A stretch of DNA of 10,614 nt, taken from the IMG/VR virus record IMGVR_UViG_2740892019_000005, positions 1-10,614 of that record. One strand, written 5' to 3'. The notes under the pieces were generated by a model. That model was not told the DNA's origin and made no database searches. It saw nothing but the letters and a program-made list of their open reading frames with translations. Position numbers and translations under genes: made by a program. Source of the stretch: a virus. Lineage: Duplodnaviria > Heunggongvirae > Uroviricota > Caudoviricetes. The first letter of the stretch is position 1; each line of letters begins with the position of its first letter. Positions 1 through 10,614 of this stretch are shown piece by piece.

Positions 1-536
1 TCATCATAACCCGCCACATCCACCGACTTTTCACGGTAGTTTTTTGCCGCTTTACCGCCCAGGCACCAAAAGCCACGACCATTGGTGAAACGCTTCATGG
101 TGAGCGTGTTATCCCGGTGCTTTTTGCCATACCACGGAGCCAGCGCCAGCAGCGACGGAATATCGCGGATGGTCGGCTCAACGTGGGTTTTCATAAAATT
201 TTCGGCATCGCCATCCGTCGGCAACCAGATAAGGGTGTTACGCTGCTTATGCTCTATGAAGTAGGCATAAACACCCAGCAGCATTTTGGAATAACCGACA
301 CGGGCAGACTTCACCACATTCACCTCACGGATGTAGTCGCTGCCCATCGCATTCATGATGGCCCGCTGAAAGGGCAGTGTTTCCCAGCGCCCTTCCTGGT
401 ATGCGGATTCTTTCGGGAGATAGTAATTAGCATCCGCCCATTCAACGGCGGTCTGCGGCTCCGGCCTGAACAGGGCACGAAGCCCGGCGCGGACAAAATG
501 CCGCAGCCTGTCAACCTGACTGTTCGATATATTCAC
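1..536 (-). CDS. A: Terminase large subunit, 5' portion only (gene continues beyond window start); GTG start at 534-536
   Basis: Minus-strand translation from 536 reads VNISNSQVDRLRHFVRAGLRALFRPEPQTAVEWADANYYLPKESAYQEGRWETLPFQRAIMNAMGSDYIREVNVV..., closely matching my recollection of lambda gpA N-terminus. No stop before position 1, so absent from the ORF track. Overlaps Nu1 3' end by 26 nt as in lambda. Confidence 0.9.
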   Translation of the reverse strand, partial: MNISNSQVDRLRHFVRAGLRALFRPEPQTAVEWADANYYLPKESAYQEGRWETLPFQRAIMNAMGSDYIREVNVVKSARVGYSKMLLGVYAYFIEHKQRNTLIWLPTDGDAENFMKTHVEPTIRDIPSLLALAPWYGKKHRDNTLTMKRFTNGRGFWCLGGKAAKNYREKSVDVAGYD

Positions 537-1056
537 TCAGCAACCCCGGTATCAGTTCATCCAGCGCGGCTGCTTTGTTCATGGCTTTGATGATATCCCG
601 TTTCAGGAAATCAATATGCCGGTTATCCAGCTCAGGAAAACGTCGCTGCACCGACAGAGGAATACCGTCGAGAATACTGGATATTTCCCTTGCTATACGC
701 GACAGCACGAAAGTACAGAATGCGGTTTCCACCACTTCAGCCGATTCTTTGGCATTTTTCAGTTCCTGCGCCGTCGCCTGAGCACGAGTCAGGCGATGGC
801 GCTCAAATTCAAGTGTTCCGGGGTGAAGATCTGCCTCGCTGGCCAGCCGCAGTTCTTCAACCTCCCGGCGCAGCTTTTCGTTCTCAATTTCAGCATCCCT
901 TTCGGCATACCATTTTATGACGGCGGCAGAATCATAAAGCACCTCATTACCCTTGCCACCGCCTCGCAGAACGGGCATTCCCTGCTCCTGCCAGTTCTGA
1001 ATGGTACGGATACTCGCACCGAAAATATCAGCCAGCTGCTTTTTGTTGACTTCCAT
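511..1056 (-). CDS. nu1: Terminase small subunit Nu1 (181 aa)
   Basis: ORF-track protein MEVNKKQLADIFGASIRTIQNWQEQGMPVLRGGGKGNEVLYDSAAVIKWYAERDAEIENEKLRREVEEL... matches lambda Nu1 from memory over almost the full length, including the N-terminal winged-HTH. Upstream sequence CCGTGGAATGAACA-ATG matches lambda. Confidence 0.95.
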   Translation of the reverse strand: MEVNKKQLADIFGASIRTIQNWQEQGMPVLRGGGKGNEVLYDSAAVIKWYAERDAEIENEKLRREVEELRLASEADLHPGTLEFERHRLTRAQATAQELKNAKESAEVVETAFCTFVLSRIAREISSILDGIPLSVQRRFPELDNRHIDFLKRDIIKAMNKAAALDELIPGLLSEYIEQSG

Positions 1057-1059
1057 TGT

Positions 1060-1260
1060 TCATTCCACGGACAAAAACAGAGAAAGGAAACAACAAAGGC
1101 CAAAAAGCCCGTTTTCAGCATCTGTCGTTTCCTTTCTTTTCAGGGGGTGTTTTAAATAAAAACATTAAGTTACGGCGAAGAAGAACGGAAACGCCTTAAA
1201 CCGGAAAATTTTCATAAATAGCGAAAACCCGCGCGCCTTCCGCCCCGTAGCCTGCCGGAT
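1060..1260. other. cos site: cosB-like segment (Nu1 R-sites and IHF region) and cosN-equivalent near 1234-1245
   Basis: Minus-strand sequence ...CGCGGGTTTTCGCTATTTATGAAAATTTTCCGGTTTAAGGCGTTTCCGTTCTTCTTCG...GAAAGGAAACGACAG... is nearly identical to the lambda left-end cosB region as I recall it. The aligned cosN 12-mer reads GGGCGGAAGGCG rather than lambda GGGCGGCGACCT. Confidence 0.7.
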
Positions 1261-1327
1261 CGCCGGAAAGGACCCGCAGGCGTTCTAGTTTATTCGCAAT
1301 GAATTCAATGTCTGACAGACCTGCGTC

Positions 1328-1345
1328 GTGCGACCACGGTCGCAC
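1328..1345. repeat. 18-bp perfect palindrome GTGCGACC-AC-GGTCGCAC, copy 1 of 4
   Basis: Exact 18-mer also at 2995-3012 and 3215-3232, and as the reverse-centre form (GT centre) at 6250-6267. The 8-bp arms are perfect reverse complements. Confidence 0.85.
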
Positions 1346-1370
1346 AGCAATGAATCAACATCCTGCATGC

Positions 1371-1438
1371 TCGCGCAGAGGAGTTCCCCGTCGGACTACG
1401 GTCATGGTTAATGCGGGAATACAGCGACGATACAGCGC
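1371..1438 (+). repeat. 68-bp direct repeat, copy 1 (second copy at 3137-3204)
   Basis: tcgcgcagaggagttccccgtcggActacggtcatGgttaatgcgggaatacAgcgacgatAcagcgc versus copy 2, with only 4 transition differences (capitals). Confidence 0.85.
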
Positions 1439-1554
1439 ATGATGTGTCAGGCTTGAATACCTTTATCCGTTAAAAGGGATATCAGTTAAGTTATCCCGTG
1501 CAGGGTATAAGCCATTATCAAAGCCACTCAGTAGCGAATGGCTTTTGTAATGGA

Positions 1555-2004
1555 CTATTTAATTAGTGATGCTGCGTATTCGATTAGATATAACTTAGGT
1601 GCCAGCCAAATTTTTAACCATGTCATATTGGCTACTACAGAAATAATAAAACTGAACCATAGAATAAAAACTGCTACTAATGGTAAGACAAAACCACTTA
1701 ACCTACCGTCACTTTCCCAAATCATAGTCGGTTTGTATTTAGGCTGTCCATTATCCCATGAGCGTCCTTCATTATCGAACTTACCAATTTCAACTTTTTT
1801 GCACTGTTTCTTCATAAACCAAATAACCAGCGGGATTGTTGAAATAGCTATTAATGTTTTAATCAGGCTATCAACCATATTCCATACCAGCAACTGATGA
1901 ACAACATCCGGAATCTGAGCCTGACTGAATGCAATGGCGGAATCAATTCCATCGCTGGCCTTCTTCAATAAATCAACAAGAATTTTATTTGCTTCTTCTT
2001 GCAT
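1555..2004 (-). CDS. Hypothetical small membrane protein (149 aa, about 2 predicted transmembrane segments); cargo gene
   Basis: ORF-track protein with hydrophobic stretches LIKTLIAISTIPLVIWF and GFVLPLVAVFILWFSFIISVVANMTWL separated by a charged loop. Region is visibly AT-rich. No lambda counterpart at this position. Confidence 0.6.
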   Translation of the reverse strand: MQEEANKILVDLLKKASDGIDSAIAFSQAQIPDVVHQLLVWNMVDSLIKTLIAISTIPLVIWFMKKQCKKVEIGKFDNEGRSWDNGQPKYKPTMIWESDGRLSGFVLPLVAVFILWFSFIISVVANMTWLKIWLAPKLYLIEYAASLIK

Positions 2005-2128
2005 GTTTATATCCTGTAAGTTGTAAGCCTGTTCGAAAAAAAATAAACAACTACGAGAGACAGAAAAAATATCTCAGGCTCTCTTTCTATAAGCTTTTAG
2101 TTGAGGATGTTCTGCAAAACAAAACTGG

Positions 2129-2971
2129 TTAGTTATGTAACTGCTTCCGGAATACAACAGCCGACGTGCTACAACGTAAAATTCGTTTGATTGTGGCCGT
2201 TGAGGAAACAGACTTGCATTTCTCAACATCATCAATGATGACCACATCCAGTACAGGTATGGCGCGGGTATGCAATGTTTTTGCACTAATAACATCACAA
2301 CCATTCAGCGGTCGAATATCTGAATCTTCAGGCACTACCAGAAGCACACGTTTTCCCGGTGCAGAAAAGCCAGCAGCAAGAGTTCGTGACAATAAAGTCA
2401 TTCCACTACGTGGCTTCATACAAATTTCAGAAATATGATTTTTTTCGTCAAAATGATGCTGGCCATCATTTTTATCATTACTCAACAACTCTGCTGTTAA
2501 TACAATCCCTGCTGTCTCAGATTTCCAGGAAATGCTGATATCCTGATCATCTGCATCAACATCATATTTCATCGAGTAAGGACTAAAGCAACGTCCAACG
2601 AACGCATCATTTACCAGTACACGCCCACCCTGTCTGACCTGAAAGTCAACGCGCCCTAAAAGCTGATTTGCTGTTACAAGCAATGCCTTTTTTCTTTTTG
2701 TTTTATTGCTCATTGCCACAAATTGTTCTGCCATCTCTCTTGTTACATCACCAGCAATTCTTTCCAGCAGTTTTACATTAACATTCTCCGTAAAATATCT
2801 GGATGACATCAGGCAGTTATTAACAATTGGCATCAGCTCACTTACGATTGTAAAAAATTCCCGGTAAAGCTCATTTTGCTTTTCAACACACAGTTCTCCA
2901 CAATCGTCCAGCTTACGCTCAAGAGCACTTAATCTTTCCATTATTGAATTAATTTTTTGCAACTCTTTCAT
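2129..2971 (-). CDS. Hypothetical protein (280 aa), no recognisable family; cargo gene upstream of the membrane protein
   Basis: Start ATG at 2969-2971 is preceded by AGGAGG (tctttgtcAGGAGGttttgATG). The ORF-track ORF extends to 3232 but that extension crosses a palindrome and a repeat and has no RBS. N-terminus looks helical/coiled-coil (MKELQKINSIMERLSALERKLDD...). Confidence 0.65.
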   Translation of the reverse strand: MKELQKINSIMERLSALERKLDDCGELCVEKQNELYREFFTIVSELMPIVNNCLMSSRYFTENVNVKLLERIAGDVTREMAEQFVAMSNKTKRKKALLVTANQLLGRVDFQVRQGGRVLVNDAFVGRCFSPYSMKYDVDADDQDISISWKSETAGIVLTAELLSNDKNDGQHHFDEKNHISEICMKPRSGMTLLSRTLAAGFSAPGKRVLLVVPEDSDIRPLNGCDVISAKTLHTRAIPVLDVVIIDDVEKCKSVSSTATIKRILRCSTSAVVFRKQLHN

Positions 2972-2994
2972 CAAAACCTCCTGACAAAGATACC

Positions 2995-3012
2995 GTGCGA
3001 CCACGGTCGCAC
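2995..3012. repeat. 18-bp palindrome GTGCGACCACGGTCGCAC, copy 2; 23 bp upstream of the 280-aa gene start
   Basis: Exact repeat of the 1328-1345 sequence. Confidence 0.85.
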
Positions 3013-3136
3013 GCTCCTGAATACATGCCCTGTTTCTTCCACCCTCGCACAGGACTGGCGAGCATGAGGGACAAACCCGCGAATCAATAGCGCGGTAAAA
3101 ACCCGGTGTGCATCGTTTTTGATTATTTCCGCACAC

Positions 3137-3204
3137 TCGCGCAGAGGAGTTCCCCGTCGGGCTACGGTCATAGTTAATGCGGGAATACGGCGACGATGCA
3201 GCGC
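3137..3204 (+). repeat. 68-bp direct repeat, copy 2
   Basis: About 94% identical to 1371-1438. The flanking upstream sequence (about 3030-3136) also resembles a lambda segment near bor that I recall, but this is unverified. Confidence 0.85.
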
Positions 3205-3214
3205 GGAATTTAGC

Positions 3215-3232
3215 GTGCGACCACGGTCGCAC
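3215..3232. repeat. 18-bp palindrome GTGCGACCACGGTCGCAC, copy 3
   Basis: Exact repeat, 10 bp after direct-repeat copy 2. Confidence 0.85.
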
Positions 3233-3251
3233 ACGAGAAACAAAGAGATTT

Positions 3252-3563
3252 TTATGCTACAGAGGAACAAGCTGGCGGGTAATTCAGCGTAGTGAATACC
3301 GGCATCTCCATCTTGTATGCGTAATGATACTCAGCAGTTGCTCCAGCAGACGCTTTCCAGCCAGGAAGCATCAAAATAGCATCAGCAGAACGAAGCATTG
3401 CAAAGCAAATATCCATGTATTAACGTTGCGTCAGGCCATTGGGTAAAGTGGCTGGATTCAGGACCGAATGACCATGACGTGACAAACGCTCAGCCTCTTT
3501 ATTAAAGGCGTCACGATTAAAATTCTCATATCCCGTCATTGGTCCGGCAATATAAATTTTCAT
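3252..3563 (-). pseudogene. DUF4406-like / nucleoside 2-deoxyribosyltransferase-like small protein interrupted by an in-frame TAA (codon 48)
   Basis: Minus-strand frame from ATG 3561-3563 reads MKIYIAGPMTGYENFNRDAFNKEAERLSRHGHSVLNPATLPNGLTQR-stop(3420-3422)-YMDICFAMLRSADAILMLPGWKASAGATAEYHYAYKMEMPVFTTLNYPPACSSVA-stop. One continuous frame with a single internal stop. The MKIYIAGPMTG start is characteristic of the family as I recall it. Confidence 0.55.
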
Positions 3564-3604
3564 TTACTATCCAACAAATTAAGTTAGTTTTTGATGCAGA
3601 TGGA

Positions 3605-4066
3605 TTAATTCAGGCATTGCGTCCTGATGTACTCCTGCAAATATCCAACCTGTTTCGTCACTGTGACGATTCGCTCTCTGAGGATGAAATAATCCCGTTC
3701 AGCGGAGTCAGTAAGTCGGGGGCCGGTAGCATCGCCCAGGCCGCCGGTGATGGTCGTTCCGTTCGCGGGACATCTGGCGTTGAGGTGCAGCCCACACTTG
3801 CCAGTGCGAACACAACGCTGCAAATCATCAAGCTGCTTTTTGGCATCAGCTAAGTCCTTCGTGTATTTGGCATCCAGAGCCGCTACATCACGCTGGCGGA
3901 TCTGCATGTCTTTGATGGTAGCGTTCGCCAGCTTCAACTCTCTGGCGTTTTTGTCGCGCTGCTCTTTATAGGAGATGGCGTTATCACGGTAATGATTAAC
4001 AGCCAACGACAGGCAGACGATGATGCAGATAACCAGTGTGGAGATAATCGCGGTGACTCTGCTCAT
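3605..4066 (-). CDS. Rz: Spanin inner-membrane subunit Rz (i-spanin)
   Basis: N-terminal TM segment ([20 protein letters not shown]) followed by a coiled-coil periplasmic domain, similar to lambda Rz. Start ATG 4064-4066 overlaps the R stop (TAATG). Chosen over the upstream ATG at 4078. Confidence 0.85.
3658..3846 (-). CDS. Rz1: Spanin outer-membrane lipoprotein Rz1 (o-spanin), embedded in the +1 frame of Rz
   Basis: Signal peptide ending in lipobox-like ...ALASVGC-TS, proline-rich body, and C-terminal TPLNGIIS motif as in lambda Rz1. Lies entirely within Rz. Confidence 0.75.
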
Positions 4067-4563
4067 TACTGCCCCCACAAACAGACTTCACGCTCAATCT
4101 CACGGCGAGTCATCAGCCCTTTCCATTGCTTACCGCCAGCATATGTCCAGCGACGTAGTTGATCACATGCACCTTTGATATCGCCCTGGTTGATTTTGCG
4201 AAGAAGCGTCGATGTTCTGAAATTGCCTGCACCCACGTTGTAAACGAACGAGTAAAGAGCACCACGCGTTGTTTCCGGTATATCGACTTTGATGTACGGG
4301 TTAATTTGTCTGGCGACAGTAGCAAGGTCTTTATTCAGGAGAGCTTTGCATTCTGCTTCGGTATACGTTTTACCGAGCATAATGTCTTTTCCTGTATGCC
4401 CGTAACATACAGTCCATACACCAACGATGTCTTTGTAGGGGTTATGTTTCACACCTTCCAGACCATCGTTGCCGCTCGGACCAGAGATGAGCACAGATGC
4501 TATGGCAATAGCCCCGCCACCAATAGCAGTTGCGACAGCTTTGCGTAATGATGACTGCATCAT
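4066..4563 (-). CDS. R: SAR endolysin (phage 21 R-type lysozyme)
   Basis: [38 protein letters not shown]... has a Gly/Ala-rich N-terminal signal-anchor-release segment followed by a T4-lysozyme-like catalytic domain. Close to the phage 21 R sequence as I recall it. Confidence 0.9.
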
Positions 4564-4832
4564 ATTTCCTTCGGTGCTCTCTTTCCCAATTCACCAATAA
4601 CCATCGCCGTGGCGGAAATATTATTGGCATCAGTTTTATCCAATATGTCCTGCAATATCTTCGTGCGCTTCATCTGCTCGCGTTTATTGAGCCGGTATGT
4701 AAGTACACCGAGGATAATGCTGAACGCGACACCGATAATGAAGCCCCAATCCTGCAATGACAGGCTGGCAAAGAACGCAGTAAGACCAGCACTACCATAA
4801 GGTGCGCTGCTGTATCGTTCATCCATCTTCAT
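4560..4832 (-). CDS. S: Holin, probable pinholin (class II, 2 TMDs) with dual-start motif MKM
   Basis: 90 aa with two adjacent hydrophobic segments ([11 protein letters not shown] and [18 protein letters not shown]) and a charged C-terminus. Stop overlaps the R start (ATGA). Preceded by GAGGT. Confidence 0.75.
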
Positions 4833-4928
4833 ATCTATTACCTCGCAATAGTTGCTGAGGTTTCGGCTTGGAAACTATACGGCGAGAAATAACCCCCATC
4901 AAAAACGGCAGGGGAATATATTCTTCAG

Positions 4929-6050
4929 TTACTCAAATAACTTTTTCACTTCATCAACTGTCTGAAGATAACGTTCACCCTCAATCTCAATACCGATTGC
5001 CTGACGACCTAACTTCAGCGCGGCTTTAATAGTAGAGCCTGATCCCATAAAGAAATCGGCAACGATATCTCCGGGGCGTGAACTACTTTTTATAATATGT
5101 TCCATCATCGCTGCAGGTTTTTCACATGGGTGCTTGCCAGGATAATATTGCACAGGAGGAAACTCCCATACATCGGTATAAGGTACATCAGCAGTAACAT
5201 GAAATGGGCGGCGCAAATTTTCATACTGAGCCTTCAAATCATCATACTGCTTCTTTACTTCCTCATAATGCAATTTCAGATCGCTATAACGCTTTTCATG
5301 TTCTGAATAATCAACATTAAAAGGATATGGACACGGGACACCGAGTGAATCTGCCTTCCTGCGAAATAATTCGCATAGTTTATTAAAATCAATTAATGAT
5401 GGAAGCCGCCACTGCGAATAAGAAAACCAGTGCGAACACATCTGCTTTCCTGTCGCTGAATTAATGTCTGCGGCTGATATATCTAACTGACGGCGAGCCA
5501 GCGAAAAAGCATCAATTAGTGGAGAAAAAATATTTTTTCTTAGATCTGCACATTTTGAAGCATAACCTGACTGACCTTTAGCATAACCTGACGCGCCGTA
5601 ATGCTCTGCAAATAATATTCTTTCAGTAGCAGGAAAATAAGCCCTTAAACTTTCTTTATGACAACCGCGCCACATACCACTGGGTTTAGCCCAAATGATA
5701 TGGTTCAGAACATTGAAACGGTCGCGAGTTAATAATTCAATTTTTGACGCAAGGCGAGAGCCGGTAAACATATACAGGCTGCCATTAGGGGCCAATATCC
5801 GCCAAAATTCTGCCAAAAATTCGTCAATCCACCCCAAAAAGTCAGCATCGCTATCCCACTGGTTATCCCATGCGTTAGCCTTTACGCCGAAGTATGGTGG
5901 GTCTGTTGCAATCAAATTGACCGAGTTATCAGGGATGGTTTTGATAAATTGCAGAGAATCTGCGCAAACGAGTTGTGCGCCATGAATATTAGTGGTTTTG
6001 AACATAGCTATTATTTTTTTGCCTGGGTAAGCTAACCCGGCGATGCGCAT
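4929..6050 (-). CDS. DNA methyltransferase, beta-class (motif IV DPPY precedes motif I FxGxG), probably N6-adenine; YhdJ-like architecture
   Basis: N-terminal ...VNLIATDPPYFG... and C-terminal ...GDIVADFFMGSGSTIKAALKLGRQAIGIEIE... Alternative start at 6003-6005 (MFKTTNIHG...); neither start has a strong SD. AT-rich relative to the flanking lysis genes. Confidence 0.85.
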   Translation of the reverse strand: MRIAGLAYPGKKIIAMFKTTNIHGAQLVCADSLQFIKTIPDNSVNLIATDPPYFGVKANAWDNQWDSDADFLGWIDEFLAEFWRILAPNGSLYMFTGSRLASKIELLTRDRFNVLNHIIWAKPSGMWRGCHKESLRAYFPATERILFAEHYGASGYAKGQSGYASKCADLRKNIFSPLIDAFSLARRQLDISAADINSATGKQMCSHWFSYSQWRLPSLIDFNKLCELFRRKADSLGVPCPYPFNVDYSEHEKRYSDLKLHYEEVKKQYDDLKAQYENLRRPFHVTADVPYTDVWEFPPVQYYPGKHPCEKPAAMMEHIIKSSSRPGDIVADFFMGSGSTIKAALKLGRQAIGIEIEGERYLQTVDEVKKLFE

Positions 6051-6140
6051 CGCGGGTGGGCTTTAGGTTCAGCCTATAGCTCTGGCATGGGTTGACCGCA
6101 GGACAAGCTGCAACTTGTCCTGCGCCCACTTTTCAGGCAC

Positions 6141-6162
6141 AAAAAAACCGCCATAAAGGCGG
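6141..6162 (-). terminator. Intrinsic terminator on the minus strand (tR'-like), about 55 nt downstream of the inferred late-promoter start
   Basis: Minus-strand RNA ...AAG-CCGCC-UUUAU-GGCGG-UUUUUUU: 5-bp all-GC stem, 5-nt loop, U7 tract. Confidence 0.5.
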
Positions 6163-6201
6163 CTTGTTGGCTGTTGGGTACAAAAAACACAACTTAATAA
6201 A

Positions 6202-6230
6202 ACAATAACTAAAAACCGTCATTTTGCCAA
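6202..6230 (-). promoter_or_regulatory. Sigma70-like promoter on the minus strand: -35 TTGGCA (6225-6230), 17-bp spacer, -10 TATTGT (6202-6207); candidate late promoter
   Basis: Hexamers and spacing read directly from the sequence. Position between the upstream small genes and the MTase/lysis cassette, with a short leader ending in a terminator, mirrors the lambdoid pR'-tR' arrangement. Confidence 0.45.
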
Positions 6231-6249
6231 GCTTTTTCGTTTTTGTGCT

Positions 6250-6267
6250 GTGCGACCGTGGTCGCAC
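6250..6267. repeat. 18-bp palindrome, copy 4 (GT-centre orientation; extended perfect palindrome CTGTGCGACCGTGGTCGCACAG at 6248-6269)
   Basis: Centre at about -63 relative to the inferred transcription start of the late promoter. On the plus strand it is followed by TTTTT. Confidence 0.85.
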
Positions 6268-6272
6268 AGTTT

Positions 6273-6500
6273 TTAGAAAGTTGCCTGCTTATATTCATCG
6301 GTCAAAGAATATCGACCAGATCCACTACGCTTTGCAACCCCAAAACAGATCATCTGTTCGATGATAAATTCAACGGCAACTTGACTCAAAAAACAGGCTT
6401 CGCTTAACTCTTTCAGGGAAATGCGTGGGTATCCACGCATAACACATTCCACACTCAGGGCCGCTTCAGTCATATTTCCACGAATTTCATTAATATTCAT
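6273..6500 (-). CDS. Small hypothetical protein (75 aa), possible winged-helix DNA-binding fold
   Basis: ATG 6498-6500 is preceded by GAGAGG. Sequence ...ISLKELSEACFLSQVAVEFIIEQMICFGVAKRSGSGRYSL... is compatible with a wHTH. It occupies the position where Q would be expected, but is too small and lacks a zinc finger. Confidence 0.55.
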   Translation of the reverse strand: MNINEIRGNMTEAALSVECVMRGYPRISLKELSEACFLSQVAVEFIIEQMICFGVAKRSGSGRYSLTDEYKQATF

Positions 6501-6513
6501 AACGCCTCTCTAA

Positions 6514-6735
6514 TCAATCTTGAAACTGGAAATCAACATCAGCCATAAAGCGGTTCAACTCAGCCAGTTTTGACCCCATAGTCCCAACTAAGCGACCAGC
6601 CAGTCGGTCTGCTAGGTTGGTACTGTTGAAACCATATTCCTTTTCGAAACGTTCAACCTTCTGCCACAACTCATACAGTTCGTTAGCTATCTCCGCAACG
6701 TCGTCGCGCATTTTTTCGTTACCTTGATAATTCAT
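6514..6735 (-). CDS. Small acidic hypothetical protein (73 aa from the RBS-supported start; the ORF-track start at 6753 adds 6 aa)
   Basis: GGAGGA lies 4-5 nt upstream of the ATG at 6733-6735. No family recognised. Confidence 0.5.
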   Translation of the reverse strand: MNYQGNEKMRDDVAEIANELYELWQKVERFEKEYGFNSTNLADRLAGRLVGTMGSKLAELNRFMADVDFQFQD

Positions 6736-6825
6736 AATATCCTCCAAATTCATATAGTTAGTAGGTTATTGCCCCTCAATGACACGAACTGTAACTCTGC
6801 CAAACGAACACATCCAGTGTTATTT

Positions 6826-6841
6826 TTCACTTTTTAGTGAA
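6826..6841. promoter_or_regulatory. Inverted repeat TTCACT-TTTT-AGTGAA in the toxin-antitoxin promoter region; candidate antitoxin operator
   Basis: Perfect 6-bp arms about 60 bp upstream of the toxin start, followed by GGAGG RBS. Confidence 0.4.
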
Positions 6842-6900
6842 ATTTTTAATTTGCGCTGTTTTCTCGTTTTGGTGTATTTTATGGGTATGGAGGCTATAAT

Positions 6901-7212
6901 ATGTTTAACGTGATAACCCACCCTGCAGCACTGGATGAACTGCTTGAACTACCAGATGATTTGCGAGGTCGCATGACCAGATTAATTGAGCGACTGGAGA
7001 AAGAAGGCAACAAACTGAAGATGCCTCATAGCCGTGTAATAGGTGGAGGGCTTTTTGAACTACGAGTAGGGGATAAAAACATCGCAAGAACGCTGTACGC
7101 CTACGCGACTGGTAACGAAATTTATCTATTGCATGCATTTGTAAAAAAGACACAGAAAACACCGGTGAAGGCTATCGAAATCGCCAGAACTCGCCTGAAG
7201 GAGATGAACTGA
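6901..7212 (+). CDS. Type II toxin, RelE/ParE superfamily, HigB-like (phage Gp49-like)
   Basis: 103 aa; ...GGGLFELRVGDKNIARTLYAYATGNEIYLLHAFVKKTQKTPVKAIEIARTRLKEM matches the conserved C-terminal signature of Gp49/HigB-like toxins as I recall it. GGAGG RBS. Stop overlaps the antitoxin start (ATGA). Confidence 0.8.
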   Translation: MFNVITHPAALDELLELPDDLRGRMTRLIERLEKEGNKLKMPHSRVIGGGLFELRVGDKNIARTLYAYATGNEIYLLHAFVKKTQKTPVKAIEIARTRLKEMN

Positions 7213-7499
7213 TGAAAGCGAAAGGCATCCCGTTTAACGAAGTAAAAGAAAAACTCCTCAACACTCCAGAAGCCGTCAAAGGATATGAAGAGGCCGACAA
7301 AGAGCTGGAGATGGTAGAAATGTTATACGAAATGAGGGAAAGAGCAGGTTTAACGAAATCAGCTCTGGCTGAACGAATGGGGTTGCGCCCGTCAGCCATC
7401 AGCCGCCTGGAAAGCAATCCTTTAGGGGCAAGTATGAAAACTTTGGCTAAATATGCTCATGCCTGCGGCGCAACCATCGATATTCGCGCTGTTTATTAA
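7212..7499 (+). CDS. Type II antitoxin, XRE-family HTH (HigA-like)
   Basis: 95 aa with HTH ...LTKSALAERMGLRPSAISRLESN...; translationally coupled downstream of the toxin (toxin-first order typical of HigBA). Confidence 0.8.
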   Translation: MKAKGIPFNEVKEKLLNTPEAVKGYEEADKELEMVEMLYEMRERAGLTKSALAERMGLRPSAISRLESNPLGASMKTLAKYAHACGATIDIRAVY

Positions 7500-7513
7500 T
7501 TAGACCCTTTTAC

Positions 7514-7537
7514 CACCCCGTCCAGAAGGGCGGGGTG
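7514..7537. terminator. Strong hairpin between convergent genes (10-bp stem CACCCCGTCC/GGGCGGGGTG, loop AGAA); possible bidirectional terminator
   Basis: Seen in sequence; sits in the gap between the antitoxin stop and the stop of the 67-aa gene. No clear U-tract on either strand. Confidence 0.35.
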
Positions 7538-7541
7538 TGCA

Positions 7542-7745
7542 TCAATGATGTGAACGCTCAACAGCGATAGTTTTCTGACAATGCTGGGCAATCTCTCGCG
7601 ACATGTTGATGAGTCGTGAAACCTCACCAATATGTAGGCTGGCTTCTGGAGAAGCCAGGGTGACGCTAACCAGATCCAGAACGGCGTCAATATCTCTTAA
7701 ATTTGAATCGAGTTGTTCAAGAGTTGATACGGCTGCTTCAGACAT
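7542..7745 (-). CDS. Hypothetical protein (67 aa), probably SOS-regulated
   Basis: ORF immediately downstream (minus strand) of a LexA-box-like sequence. No TM segment and no recognised family. Weak RBS. Confidence 0.5.
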   Translation of the reverse strand: MSEAAVSTLEQLDSNLRDIDAVLDLVSVTLASPEASLHIGEVSRLINMSREIAQHCQKTIAVERSHH

Positions 7746-7783
7746 TAAATCTCATACCATTTAACTAAAAAAGGTTATTTATA

Positions 7784-7799
7784 CTGTATAAAATTACAG
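7784..7799. promoter_or_regulatory. LexA box (SOS box) taCTGTataaaattACAGgg
   Basis: CTGT-N8-ACAG with AT-rich spacer matches the E. coli LexA consensus TACTGTATATATATACAGTA. Lies about 45 bp upstream of the 67-aa gene start in its promoter region. Confidence 0.65.
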
Positions 7800-7827
7800 G
7801 GTAAAACTCAAACTTTACGGTCAATTT

Positions 7828-8070
7828 TCAATGAATTAACTGCGTAAACTGCTGTGTGGCCCGATACTTATGCTCTCTCCCTATGCCACGATCAGCTTTC
7901 TCAAGAAGTCCAGTACGGACAGCAGAATCAAGCATCCTTTTAACAATTCTGCTATTTAACCCAACATCAAAAGCAAGCATCGAAGCGAAAACAAACCCAT
8001 CACCACCATCAGAAAAGCTCTTTTCGCTCCGTTTTCGTATCATTTCAAAAAGCAATGCCTTTTTATCCAT
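7828..8070 (-). CDS. Hypothetical protein (80 aa), possible winged-helix
   Basis: GGAGGG RBS 5 nt upstream of the ATG; last gene of a six-gene minus-strand operon. Confidence 0.6.
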   Translation of the reverse strand: MDKKALLFEMIRKRSEKSFSDGGDGFVFASMLAFDVGLNSRIVKRMLDSAVRTGLLEKADRGIGREHKYRATQQFTQLIH

Positions 8071-8088
8071 TTATCCCTCCGTGACCAG

Positions 8089-8415
8089 TCACGCTTTGAG
8101 CGCAAGTTTCAACCTCGTGGTTGTAAGGTGGCATGAGCCTTCGCCATCAAAAATGCATTCTGAAACAGGCATTTTTTGACCACATCGCGGGCAAGTAGTA
8201 GATAGCTGCTTCTGCAGCTCCTTATAGTTTTTCCTGATCAGCAAACCAATGACTTCGTTCTCCGAATATGGAACTCGCCCTGGTCTACGCAATACACAAA
8301 TTTCCCCCAACATACGTAACTCGTCAGGTTCTAGAATCCAGTCCCGTCTTGATGTGCCTTCCTTCTTCAACCGTTCCCTGCGTCTCCTTTGCCGTTCTGC
8401 CGGTGTCAGCGCCAT
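8089..8415 (-). CDS. Hypothetical protein (108 aa) with Arg/Lys-rich N-terminus and Cys-rich C-terminus (CPRCG...C...C, possible zinc ribbon)
   Basis: AGGAGG RBS upstream of the ATG at 8413-8415. Confidence 0.6.
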   Translation of the reverse strand: MALTPAERQRRRRERLKKEGTSRRDWILEPDELRMLGEICVLRRPGRVPYSENEVIGLLIRKNYKELQKQLSTTCPRCGQKMPVSECIFDGEGSCHLTTTRLKLALKA

Positions 8416-8430
8416 AAATCCTCCTGAAAA

Positions 8431-8844
8431 TTACTTAACCCAATTAACTACACCGCCAGCGGCCACAACCGCCCTTTCACAGTCACGCTCATATCTCAAA
8501 GGTTGAAATACACCATCAATAAAATATTTATCTCCACCAAACGCTGCAGGAAGTGAAACAGAAAACTGAATACGATTATCATCCGGCACCACCGGCAGTG
8601 GCTGGGCTACATATAATGACTGAACATACCAGCCCTTTGATAACCAACTGTCAGCAATGTTTTTACTCCGGGTTATTGCCGGAATACCTAAGCCATTGTC
8701 TGAATGCAGCCATGCCACCGGTTCTGCTTCCAGCGAGGCTAACGCTATTTCATAAGCCCGGCGCTCAATATTGTCTCTCACGTCCAGGCTGCCTATGCGC
8801 TCTTTGATTTCTTTAATCAGTTCTTTGTCGGTAAAAGTGCTCAT
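8431..8844 (-). CDS. Hypothetical phage protein (138 aa), paralog of the next gene
   Basis: RBS AAGGAGA upstream of the ATG at 8842-8844 (the ORF track extends 7 codons further without an RBS). Shares the motif ASLEAEPVAW with the 150-aa neighbour. Confidence 0.65.
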   Translation of the reverse strand: MSTFTDKELIKEIKERIGSLDVRDNIERRAYEIALASLEAEPVAWLHSDNGLGIPAITRSKNIADSWLSKGWYVQSLYVAQPLPVVPDDNRIQFSVSLPAAFGGDKYFIDGVFQPLRYERDCERAVVAAGGVVNWVK

Positions 8845-8845
8845 A

Positions 8846-9295
8846 TCAATCTCCTTTGGTACCAATGTTTACAGCCTGGCAAGCCTCTTTGAGCACCCAG
8901 TCAACAGCGTCTTTCCATGCTCCGGTTTCGACTGGCGGATTTTCACGCTTAACCTGTTCATAGAAGCGCACTGCTTTAATCAATCCTTCTGGTGTCAGTG
9001 GCACAGGCGGGGCAGTGAATAACGCCTGAATTTCATAGTTCGGTCTGTCGTTGCAACCCTCTTTTGTCGGTACATATTTCCAGTCACCAACCCACGGCTC
9101 CCCCTGTGAGTCCGTAATGCCTTTTTTCACGTAGCGATATCGCCACGCCATCGGTTCTGCTTCCAGCGATGCCTGTGCGATACGAAACACATTGGCAAGC
9201 AGGCTGTCTGAGGATTGGTTATCGTGCGCCGGGTCGCTCAGGAAGCCATTGATGAATGATTTAATCTTCGAGTTTTCTCTGGTAATAGTGGTCAT
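8846..9295 (-). CDS. Hypothetical phage protein (150 aa), paralog of the previous gene
   Basis: RBS AAGGAGAG upstream of the ATG at 9293-9295. The ORF-track N-terminal extension to 9553 overlaps the upstream gene and is rejected. Motif ASLEAEPMAW. Confidence 0.65.
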   Translation of the reverse strand: MTTITRENSKIKSFINGFLSDPAHDNQSSDSLLANVFRIAQASLEAEPMAWRYRYVKKGITDSQGEPWVGDWKYVPTKEGCNDRPNYEIQALFTAPPVPLTPEGLIKAVRFYEQVKRENPPVETGAWKDAVDWVLKEACQAVNIGTKGD

Positions 9296-9296
9296 A

Positions 9297-10049
9297 TCAC
9301 TCTCCTTTGCGAATCTCTGCGGCAAAGTCAGTCGCATGCTCACCGAGTAGTTTCCAGTTATCGCGTATATCAGATGCAAGCGACTGTTCGGATTTTGAGT
9401 TACATTTCTGTGCAAACATTTCCACCCCCTGCGCCCGCACTTCAGACAGGAAAGAGTCGGTGGCTGGGGTTTCGACATTAGGTCGAAGCTCATAATCACA
9501 AACTCTTTCAATCCATGGTGATACTCTGTCGCATTTCCTCTTCTTGCGTTCACCGACCTTGGTTGCCTGCTGAATAATTACCCCCCAGCAAATGCTTTCG
9601 ACCTCTTCGCTCCATCCATCGCAAGCATCGCCTCTATAGTCGTCAATTGCAGCCTCAGCAGCAGCGATAGCCTCCTCAGCAGTTTTGTGACACTCGAAAC
9701 TAAATTCAGAGCCATATGAGAAATACATAGCCCCGGCCTTCAGCGCCGCATTCTCCGCCGCCAGAGCCGCGCAACTGGCCTCCAGCTCTGCAATGCGTTT
9801 GCTTTGAGCCTCTCGTTCATCCAGCAGTGCCTGCACTACTTCAGGGTTGAAAGCTGCGATATAATGAGCGTTGTTCTCTGCGTTTTTCTGTCCGTCAAAG
9901 CCGGTCCATTTGATAACGTCTTCACATCGTTTATCACCGGGCGTATGCACTGCATACGTACCAGTACCCGGCGAAATAAATGCGACCCATTCACCCTGTG
10001 TTGCCTGTTTTGCTATCTCACGCAGTACCTGATAATTGATTTCACTCAC
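9297..10049 (-). CDS. Hypothetical phage protein (250 aa) with central Ala-rich coiled-coil; possibly Ea22-like
   Basis: GTG start at 10047-10049 is preceded by AGGAGG and overlaps the upstream gene stop (GTGA). Contains ELEASCAALAAENAALKAG. The Ea22-like call is a recollection, not verified. Confidence 0.55.
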   Translation of the reverse strand: MSEINYQVLREIAKQATQGEWVAFISPGTGTYAVHTPGDKRCEDVIKWTGFDGQKNAENNAHYIAAFNPEVVQALLDEREAQSKRIAELEASCAALAAENAALKAGAMYFSYGSEFSFECHKTAEEAIAAAEAAIDDYRGDACDGWSEEVESICWGVIIQQATKVGERKKRKCDRVSPWIERVCDYELRPNVETPATDSFLSEVRAQGVEMFAQKCNSKSEQSLASDIRDNWKLLGEHATDFAAEIRKGE

Positions 10050-10468
10050 AGTACTACCTCCTGAAGATTTCCCTGATAAAACGCCAGCACACGCTGCATA
10101 ACTTCGCTCTTCTGGCAATCGTGACAAATCATGTTCAAGCGCCTGTCGTAACGACGTATTTCTCCGTCAGGTAATGACCAGATAAGGTCTGGATCAACCA
10201 CTACCGATTTCTTCGGCTTTACTCTTGATAGCTTTTTACGGGCGTTTTGCCAGTCCTTGCGTGCTTGTGCAGACAGAAATATCCCGGAGCCAGAGATATA
10301 CAAATCACCACTGGCAGCAAGCTCTCTTGATAAACGACTAACAGCACACCGGCTAATACCAGTTTCATCCGCAAGTTGCCTAACCGTTCCTCGTCCATTC
10401 AGGCGTACGAGTTCCACAATTTGTTTATTCAGTTCTTCCCTCTGTTCTGGTGTAAAAGCCTTTGCCAT
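10046..10468 (-). CDS. Hypothetical HTH DNA-binding protein (140 aa), first gene of the operon
   Basis: AAGGAGAA RBS. HTH-like segment TVRQLADETGISRCAVSRLSREL. Confidence 0.6.
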   Translation of the reverse strand: MAKAFTPEQREELNKQIVELVRLNGRGTVRQLADETGISRCAVSRLSRELAASGDLYISGSGIFLSAQARKDWQNARKKLSRVKPKKSVVVDPDLIWSLPDGEIRRYDRRLNMICHDCQKSEVMQRVLAFYQGNLQEVVL

Positions 10469-10547
10469 TACGATTCTCCTTGCCCTTTTACAAGACGGGA
10501 GAAAATTGCGGATACATATTTAGCCTGATGAATAGCATCAGCCAGGG

Positions 10548-10614
10548 GGTAATGACTCCAACTTACTGATAGTGTTTTATGTTCAGATAATGCCCGATGA
10601 CTTTGTCATGCAGC
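10548..10614. mobile_element. IS1 terminal inverted repeat and first 67 bp (element continues beyond window end)
   Basis: GGTAATGACTCCAACTTACTGATAGTGTTTTATGTTCAGATAATGCCCGATGACTTTGTCATGCAGC matches the IS1 end (insB-proximal IR) as I recall it, with one or two differences. Confidence 0.8.

Follow-up and report, generated by a model that had tools for sequence, protein, structure and literature searches.

Between the lysis genes and the cos region of a virus of the Caudoviricetes (IMG/VR record IMGVR_UViG_2740892019_000005, positions 1 to 10,614) lie two AT-rich genes, and the question they raise is whether they work together. Gene A codes for a soluble protein of 280 amino acids (aa) and gene B, co-oriented with it and separated from it by 124 nucleotides (nt), for a membrane protein of 149 aa. 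A reading of the DNA without database searches (the sequence-only reading) had proposed them as an undescribed phage-carried defence or lysogenic-conversion system, built like RexA/RexB. Our analysis points elsewhere: the tandem probably consists of two independent single-gene accessory modules (morons), placed in a variable slot between the inverted repeat (IR) IR4 and cos in the late operon of an N15-like phage. The apparently tidy two-gene defence module would then be two separately mobile accessory genes, and the finding is mainly a correction. Unless another locus is named, coordinates refer to the whole 10,614-nt stretch (the window) and are collected in Table 1; L-numbered loci (L013, L018 and others) are the related phage contigs and prophages compared with it.

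Occurrence and expression of genes A and B

Open reading frames (ORFs) and hydrophobicity profiles confirmed the basic description of the two genes. Both ORFs were intact; gene A had no hydrophobic segment (Kyte-Doolittle 19-residue maximum 1.21) and gene B had two, at residues ~43-64 and ~105-127 (maxima 1.85 and 2.74). The cargo was also, as had been noted, richer in AT than its flanks: gene A has a GC content of 0.401 and gene B of 0.362, compared with 0.482 (R), 0.527 (Rz) and 0.513 (Nu1); at third codon positions the values are 0.34 and 0.33, those of Rz and Nu1 being 0.63 and 0.52.

Complete E. coli genomes were searched at megablast sensitivity. Both genes were present in 28 of 5426 genomes, a shortened gene A alone in 4 and gene B alone in ~34. 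Gene B without gene A occupied the same Rz-cos slot in L013 and L079 and was found in early-left (PL) operons in L004-L011 and L014. Gene A without gene B was found in L018/L019 (two assemblies), where an intact homologue of 276 aa, 80% identical, abuts cos; the ratio of nonsynonymous to synonymous divergence (dN/dS) of this copy is ~0.25. The synonymous divergence (dS) between the window and L024 is 0.12 for gene A and 0.22 for gene B, and between the window and L022 it is 0.11 for gene A and 0.04 for gene B. Since the divergence patterns of the two genes differ between the same genome pairs, recombination between them has occurred.

The view of the Rz-to-cos segment as an accessory interval held when relatives were surveyed. 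In N15-like IMG/VR contigs and lambdoid prophages the same interval also contained gp59-like proteins, Rha/antirepressor, Iss/Bor and HNH remnants. Genes A and B resemble morons, a concept that reportedly goes back to Juhala et al. in 2000 with bor, lom and HK97 gp15 as examples, in their deviant base composition, in their presence or absence between the same flanking genes in relatives and in the hairpin at the end; they differ in that no promoter of their own was detected.

Both genes close the Q-dependent late operon at its 3' end and share its orientation. A scan for sigma-70-like promoters upstream of the start codons of gene A and gene B gave no promoter-like site; taken together, this result and the place at the end of a late operon do not favour expression in lysogens. 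We infer that both genes are carried by a Q-antiterminated late transcript from a p52-like promoter near 6215, so that the two proteins would be products of lytic growth and not of the lysogenic state. Proteins of the ParB type spread outwards from their sites and are able to silence nearby genes; as gene A starts 23 nt from a predicted site of this kind and lies among two or three of them (see below), it is not an obvious candidate for constitutive expression from a plasmid prophage. In work attributed to Ravin, Rech and Lane in 2008, SopB complexes at IR2 and IR3 are said to help the activation of late genes in N15.

The gene products and their possible roles

Over its full length, gene B belongs to PHROG 3054 (phrog_3054, E 3.5e-58 over residues 1-149), a family annotated as 'unknown function' and named 'phage transmembrane protein' by some sources. 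It had no match in Pfam, NCBIfam or PADLOC (PADLOC-DB 2.0.0, searched at E up to 1; systems described after 2023 lie outside its coverage) and none in a PDB sequence-profile search. The family gave 490 matches across Escherichia, Shigella, Salmonella, Citrobacter, Cronobacter, Klebsiella and Pantoea, and 174 phage records were matched, among them CUS-3, Pseudomonas phages and Sf6, whose gene 34 product is 43% identical to that of gene B by tblastn and 48% in a MAFFT alignment. Relatives also occur in virulent phages of Vibrio (N4-like) and E. coli (phi92-like). In P22-like Salmonella/E. coli prophages the gene lies in the PL operon after N, beside sieB, followed by variable neighbours (a pentapeptide protein, HNH or P22_Y8K6), and in a lambda-like prophage it is flanked by ral and a DUF2528 gene. 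The homologues of Sf6 and of the P22- and lambda-like prophages stand in the early-left operon, after N/ral, whereas gene B of the window stands in the late operon. Present in virulent and temperate phages alike, this two-helix membrane protein with its invariant juxtamembrane motifs is widely conserved, and PHROG 3054 is a reasonable target for functional study.

All copies of gene B that were examined (11/11) were intact. The dN/dS values, 0.10-0.32 between distant copies and 0.19-0.84 among close ones, indicate that the gene is under purifying selection. The AlphaFold2 (AF2) model predicts a helical hairpin with a long N-terminal helix and a C-terminal amphipathic helix. Two motifs are conserved family-wide, F..Q.P.V.HQLL.W before the first transmembrane helix (TM1) and W.KI.IAPK.YL.EYA..L after the second (TM2). 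In the family alignments the inter-helix loop and the transmembrane segments are the most variable parts; the loop varies in length and is almost gone in the Vibrio phage member. Because the invariant residues cluster at the juxtamembrane termini, these termini, both on one side of the membrane, are taken as the probable functional surface.

Gene A is far more restricted in its distribution. It matched PHROG 2571 over its full length (phrog_2571, E 1.2e-143 over residues 1-280), a family annotated as 'unknown function' and limited to Escherichia/Shigella, and it had no match in Pfam, NCBIfam or PADLOC. A word-index search returned 15 proteins; wherever an organism was named it was E. coli, with Shigella sonnei among the cluster members. 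When 1.84 billion representatives were searched exhaustively with phmmer, a single cluster matched over the full length; the rest were fragments and two distant proteins related to the middle domain only. Judged by these searches, gene A is a near-orphan. The family searches with both proteins led only to PHROG families of 'unknown function' and to no characterised homologue. The 8 copies of gene A examined were all intact (dN/dS 0.22-0.41), and gene A, too, is under purifying selection; shortened variants occur in phage YDC107_1, classified as Ravinvirus, and in L064, L086 and L121.

Three domains are predicted in the AF2 model of gene A: an N-terminal helical hairpin (residues ~1-93), a beta-rich domain (~94-165) and a C-terminal alpha/beta domain (~182-276). 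The C-terminal domain contains, in the order of a P-loop protein, the motifs KPRSGMT, VLLVVPED and VVIIDD. In the Walker-A-like KPRSGMT, which does not fit the pattern GxxxxGK[ST], Met takes the place of the lysine and is invariant in 7/7 aligned homologues. The PDB sequence-profile search gave the P4 packaging NTPase and Wzc K540M at sub-threshold level only (E 0.69-0.87), and the native sequence had no P-loop match in Pfam. The C-terminal domain probably looks like a P-loop fold without the catalytic lysine and, with that lysine lost, would be a binder rather than a hydrolase.

At least two of the three domains have stand-alone homologues in late-operon slots, which suggests that gene A is a mosaic of modules circulating in such accessory slots. 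Homologues of the beta domain, of 68-89 aa, lie right after Rz in L013 and L024 (47% identity), and one of 83 aa occupies the same slot in L083; the domain is also found inside P0143, a 181-aa protein in the Q-holin interval of another prophage. A stand-alone homologue of the N-terminal hairpin is placed after the IR in L131.

Gene A was also considered as a ParA-like partner of the adjacent centromere site. This idea was dropped because no significant similarity was found to N15 gp59, to SopA (hhalign probability 0.2%) or to a group of small proteins with a KTT motif (E 0.05 and hhalign 0.5% against the C-terminal domain). The latter, of 151-157 aa, are encoded between the DUF4406 gene and the IR in some N15-like contigs (L035 3136-3609, minus strand; L083 1388-1843); they carry a Walker-A-like PxxSSKTT and IIDD/VFDD motifs and belong to no Pfam or PHROG family.

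As to what the two proteins do, a lytic-cycle role for the benefit of the phage (host takeover, exclusion or counter-defence) is our best guess for both genes, made with low confidence. Gene B would be a hairpin inner-membrane protein whose conserved juxtamembrane N- and C-terminal helices, on the same side, form the working part. Since its family occurs in early operons of virulent and temperate phages, it would most likely act on a conserved host envelope or membrane-proximal target, in host takeover, exclusion of secondary infection or counter-defence. Gene A would be a cytoplasmic three-domain mosaic with a C-terminal domain that probably binds.

That the cargo is specifically counter-defence or host-takeover equipment of lytic growth, with gene A, for example, as a non-catalytic decoy or binder of a host or competitor NTPase and gene B as a membrane inhibitor of a host abortive-infection effector, is possible though rather doubtful. 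Both genes lie in lytic operons, gene B is found beside ral in PL operons that also bear anti-RecBCD genes, the same slot in L083 encodes an Acb2/Tad1 hairpin domain (PF24729, E 5e-17), and the Walker-A-like motif of gene A has an invariant Met in place of Lys. Against this, neither protein has homology to known anti-defence proteins, the P-loop match is below threshold and the function is argued from neighbourhood.

It is unlikely that each gene alone serves defence or lysogenic conversion, with gene B as a superinfection-exclusion protein of the lysogen like HK97 gp15, P22 SieA or T4 Imm. Gene B is indeed a small inner-membrane protein, stands beside sieB in the accessory region of P22-like prophages and forms a self-contained unit with its own hairpin; its dN/dS of 0.55-0.84 among close relatives may hint at diversifying pressure. 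In the family alignments the loop and the transmembrane segments vary most. However, conservation is concentrated at the juxtamembrane termini and not in the loop, which the Vibrio phage member nearly lacks. Moreover, the family has members in virulent phages, is always co-oriented with lytic operons (PL or late) and matches no PADLOC model.

The arrangement with which we began, a two-component abortive-infection or exclusion module after the logic of RexA/RexB, in which a soluble sensor or regulator and a membrane effector protect the lysogen, is improbable. The likeness is one of outline: in both cases a soluble protein of ~280 aa is followed by a membrane protein of ~145 aa on a lambdoid prophage. 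Genes A and B are adjacent and found together on several lambdoid backbones, both are under purifying selection, and their slot is known for accessory genes. However, hhalign gave a probability of 1.8% for gene A with RexA and of 0.1% for gene B with RexB. RexB has four transmembrane helices, against the two hydrophobic segments of gene B. The rexAB genes adjoin cI in the immunity region and are expressed in lysogens, whereas the cargo of the window closes the late operon, in the Rz-cos interval. Nor are genes A and B obligately linked: each is found intact without the partner, their recombination histories differ, and gene B has relatives in virulent phages and early lytic operons. Because each gene occurs alone, no RexA/RexB or PADLOC match was obtained and the cargo lies in a late operon without a predicted promoter of its own, the paired-defence reading is unsupported. 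The proposal stands in so far as these are foreign accessory genes; its paired defence system is not supported, and neither gene has a match in PADLOC, Pfam or NCBIfam.

A two-gene cargo in a telomere phage of N15 type has a precedent in the telocin locus of Klebsiella phages, which lies between repA and the gene for the protelomerase and encodes TelA, a protein similar to pore-forming bacteriocins, and ImmA, with four hydrophobic helices; lysogens express it (PMC12042878). Like genes A and B, it combines a soluble with an inner-membrane protein. The locus is a different one, however, and neither gene A nor gene B matched a bacteriocin or immunity family in Pfam or in the PDB profile search.

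Several points count against two independent modules with a lytic role. Gene A alone is rare: it was seen in two draft assemblies, and 0 complete E. coli genomes have an intact lone gene A. The 28 genomes with the complete pair carry it on different lambdoid backbones with differing lysis and terminase modules, and such joint travel would also fit a functional unit. The promoter scan was crude and may have passed over a lysogen-active promoter. The structure models are of low to moderate confidence (predicted local distance difference test, pLDDT, 55.8 for gene A and 67.5 for gene B). Finally, the loop of gene B is rich in K/R (net +3), which makes the topology uncertain: such a loop would favour a termini-out topology, against the simple guess of termini in.

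Two further proposals would change the picture and, taken as alternatives, have a small chance of being right. Either the tandem is a unit in a SopB-bound chromatin patch of N15-like phage-plasmids, in which gene A, P-loop-like but lacking the lysine and always 23 nt from a centromere site, regulates or senses and gene B, a hairpin membrane protein spread across phages, blocks at membrane level by exclusion or abortive infection, or PHROG 3054 is a new, widespread class of early membrane effectors with one conserved host target.

The N15-like slot, its centromere sites and its repeats

The sequence-only reading had missed the N15-like backbone, the four copies of the palindrome and a repeat of 74 nt that brackets the cargo. 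The backbone is that of an N15-like linear phage-plasmid of E. coli, not of lambda, and the window covers its late operon. The region with IR3, p52 and the terminator is 85% identical to N15, and the gene order agrees with N15 genes 51-57. The nearest complete replicons with the cargo are 'plasmids' of ~46 kb that encode a protelomerase, sopA, a ParB-family gene and a CyRepA1 RepA; one of them, the closely related pAH01-1, also encodes Q. Phage YDC107_1, with its shortened version, is classified as Ravinvirus, a further tie to N15. In N15, gene 57 (DUF4406) is followed by gene 58 (cytosine methylase), IR4, gene 59 and cos. As the gene order and the IR position in the window match this arrangement, the cargo sits in the IR4-to-cos slot.

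The AGGAGG ribosome-binding site and the 18-bp palindrome 23 nt upstream of gene A were both as the sequence-only reading had described them. The palindrome, GTGCGACCACGGTCGCAC at 2995-3012, ends exactly 23 nt before the ATG and has four copies in the window (1328, 2995, 3215 and 6250), where 0 are expected by chance; all four have perfect arms and agree with the N15-type inverted repeat GTGCGACCNNGGTCGCAC (16/18-bp). In N15 the SopB-binding centromere sites IR1 and IR4 have the sequence GTGCGACCACGGTCGCAC, while IR2 has ..CCTCGG.. and IR3 ..CCATGG.. (PMC7205306, Table 4), and the N15 sites differ from the sopC core of the F plasmid, CTGGGACCACGGTCCCAC, only at position 4/4' of each half-site (PMC2910045). 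In three copies the centre is AC, and these are identical to IR1/IR4; at 6250 the same centre is found on the opposite strand. Given this identity to published sites, the palindrome of the window is an exact N15 IR1/IR4 site, and what had looked like a regulatory oddity of gene A is, by sequence, a SopB centromere site of a kind already characterised in N15.

The dispersed positions are those of the N15 type as well, before p52 (the 6250 copy) and between the late accessory genes and cos. In IMG/VR the 18-mer occurs several times per contig in the N15-like group, including a 46,375-bp contig identical to phage N15. It is exact in plasmid forms and degenerate in some chromosomal prophages (GAGCAACC... 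and GAGCAACCACGGTCGCAC in L013 and L024). The sop genes lie beyond the window; the close relative pAH01-1 carries sopA and a ParB-family gene, and binding of SopB at the sites of the window is predicted from sequence. The cargo of the window and N15 gene 59 share the slot, after the DUF4406 gene and a SopB IR and before cos, and the sequence of the SopB site; they differ in that N15 has a single IR4, preceded by the cytosine methylase gene 58, and gp59 as its cargo, whereas in the window the IR is triplicated, with three sites within 1.9 kb bracketing the cargo. The distance from the IR to the start of gene A is 23 nt in the window (2972-2994) and also in L018 (5978-6000), where the intervening sequence differs and the homologue is 80% identical. 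This constant spacing may reflect coupling to SopB binding or only shared ancestry.

The 74-nt direct repeat (1365-1438 and 3131-3204, 92% identical) is part of a conserved non-coding element before cos, the pre-cos element. Together with the IR at 2995-3012, the upstream copy of this element forms the left copy of a repeat of ~211 bp around the cargo; in pAH01-1 the 211-bp repeats are present in full form on both sides, at 95% identity, each ending in an IR. The element matched 327 phage records; of the 5426 complete E. coli genomes, 4753 gave a match to a query that included it. No Rfam family came near threshold anywhere in the window, and the pre-cos element is therefore not among the catalogued RNAs. 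Small Arg-rich ORFs annotated across it in some records look spurious.

Directly after the gene B stop codon a stable hairpin is predicted (RNA fold -21.7 kcal/mol, z -3.9). It has no clear U tract and appears, from the folding model, to be a terminator-like or transcript-stabilising element. As a boundary sequence the hairpin is shared with ~1500 E. coli genomes, in which the late accessory genes that it follows are unrelated to gene B; in strain 55989, for instance, it follows a Gp49-family gene. The equivalent hairpin of phage Ayreon is annotated as a terminator; the copy in the window has a C-to-T change with the pairing kept as G-U.

In relatives, the breakpoints of rearrangements coincide with these repeats. 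The segment between the two upstream IRs is exactly what L020 lacks, and the homology of L024 starts at the IR. L013 cleanly lacks gene A: its degenerate IR and 12 nt run straight into a point 58 nt upstream of gene B. The order in L018 is pre-cos element, IR, gene A, cos. Judged by these breakpoints, homologous recombination between phages put the pair together and keeps reshuffling it. In the simplest history the tandem would stem from two phages, one with [pre-cos-IR]-gene A-cos and the other with IR-gene B-hairpin-[pre-cos]-cos, by unequal homologous recombination. The IR4-to-cos interval of N15-like phage-plasmids is a recombination-driven cargo slot, whose junctions coincide with SopB sites and with the pre-cos element of most E. 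coli genomes. A homing-endonuclease explanation for the HNH remnants next to the palindrome in L013 and L024 was considered and rejected; phages of HK97 type have an HNH gene before cos for terminase function.

That the DNA itself is the selected feature, extra SopB sites or pre-cos repeats aiding partition or late-gene activation while genes A and B are decaying hitch-hikers, is very improbable: although three IR sites stand here against one in N15, the IR is exact in plasmid forms, shortened gene A variants exist and the neighbouring DUF4406 gene is a pseudogene, the full-length copies of gene A (8/8) and gene B (11/11) are intact, their long-range dN/dS is well below 1 and gene B is conserved far beyond Sop-bearing phages.

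Gene order, coordinates and other occupants of the slot

Every gene in the left two thirds of the window is on the minus strand. The order of transcription is methylase, holin, lysozyme, Rz/Rz1, a broken DUF4406 gene, gene A, gene B, cos and Nu1. The DUF4406 gene has an in-frame TAA after codon 47 and is a pseudogene in the phage of the window; it is intact in relatives.

Table 1. Coordinates of the features of the window, in order of position.
Feature	Position	Strand	Remarks
Nu1	511-1056	-	Pfam; last in transcription order, after gene A, gene B and the cos region
SopB IR site, third	1328-1345	.	272 nt upstream of Nu1, just before cos; kept in many related phages
Pre-cos element, downstream shortened copy	1365-1438	-	74-nt direct repeat
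Stable hairpin	1496-1556	-	directly after gene B stop
Gene B	1555-2004	-	149 aa, two hydrophobic helices
Gene A	2129-2971	-	280 aa; start codon ATG (2971) within a longer GTG ORF
AGGAGG ribosome-binding site of gene A	2977-2982	-	5 nt before the ATG; read directly
SopB IR site	2995-3012	.	23 nt upstream of gene A
Pre-cos element, upstream copy	3018-3204	-	non-coding, conserved; includes the 74-nt repeat 3131-3204
SopB IR site, second	3215-3232	.	directly downstream of DUF4406; position of IR4 in most N15-like contigs
DUF4406 gene (N15 gene 57 homologue)	3252-3563	-	last backbone gene before the cargo slot
Rz/Rz1	3605-4078	-	Rz: Pfam
Lysozyme (R)	4066-4563	-	Pfam
Holin	4560-4832	-	Pfam
N6/N4 DNA methylase	4929-6050	-	first in transcription order of the listed genes
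Late promoter (p52-like, near 6215; -35 TTGGCA) and strong intrinsic terminator GCCGCCTTTATGGCGGTTTTTTT	6100-6250		start of the operon holding the cargo
SopB IR site, fourth (IR3 equivalent)	6250-6267	.	after the gene-51 homologue, just upstream of the p52-like promoter/terminator

On the plus strand, at 6901-7499, a Gp49/HigB-like toxin (103 aa) and a helix-turn-helix antitoxin (95 aa) are encoded, homologues of N15 genes 49 and 48; this pair is probably a plasmid-addiction module of the phage-plasmid.

The literature searched yielded nothing of relevance on PhiR46_1 or on any defence hotspot described for the Rz-cos interval. In the slot of L083 (1353-3819 of IMG/VR contig 3300027312_000082), the protein with the Acb2/Tad1 hairpin domain has 120 aa and is accompanied by two small lipoproteins, a 204-aa coiled-coil protein and the stand-alone homologue of the gene A beta domain. 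The usual occupant of the IR4-cos slot is the mosaic gp59 family, which has variable N-termini and a conserved C-terminal part that resembles the tail-tip protein J (PF09327, PHROG 31); examples are N15 gene 59 itself (L145 6508-7131) and the proteins of L032, L047, L052, L062, L124, L135 and L142.

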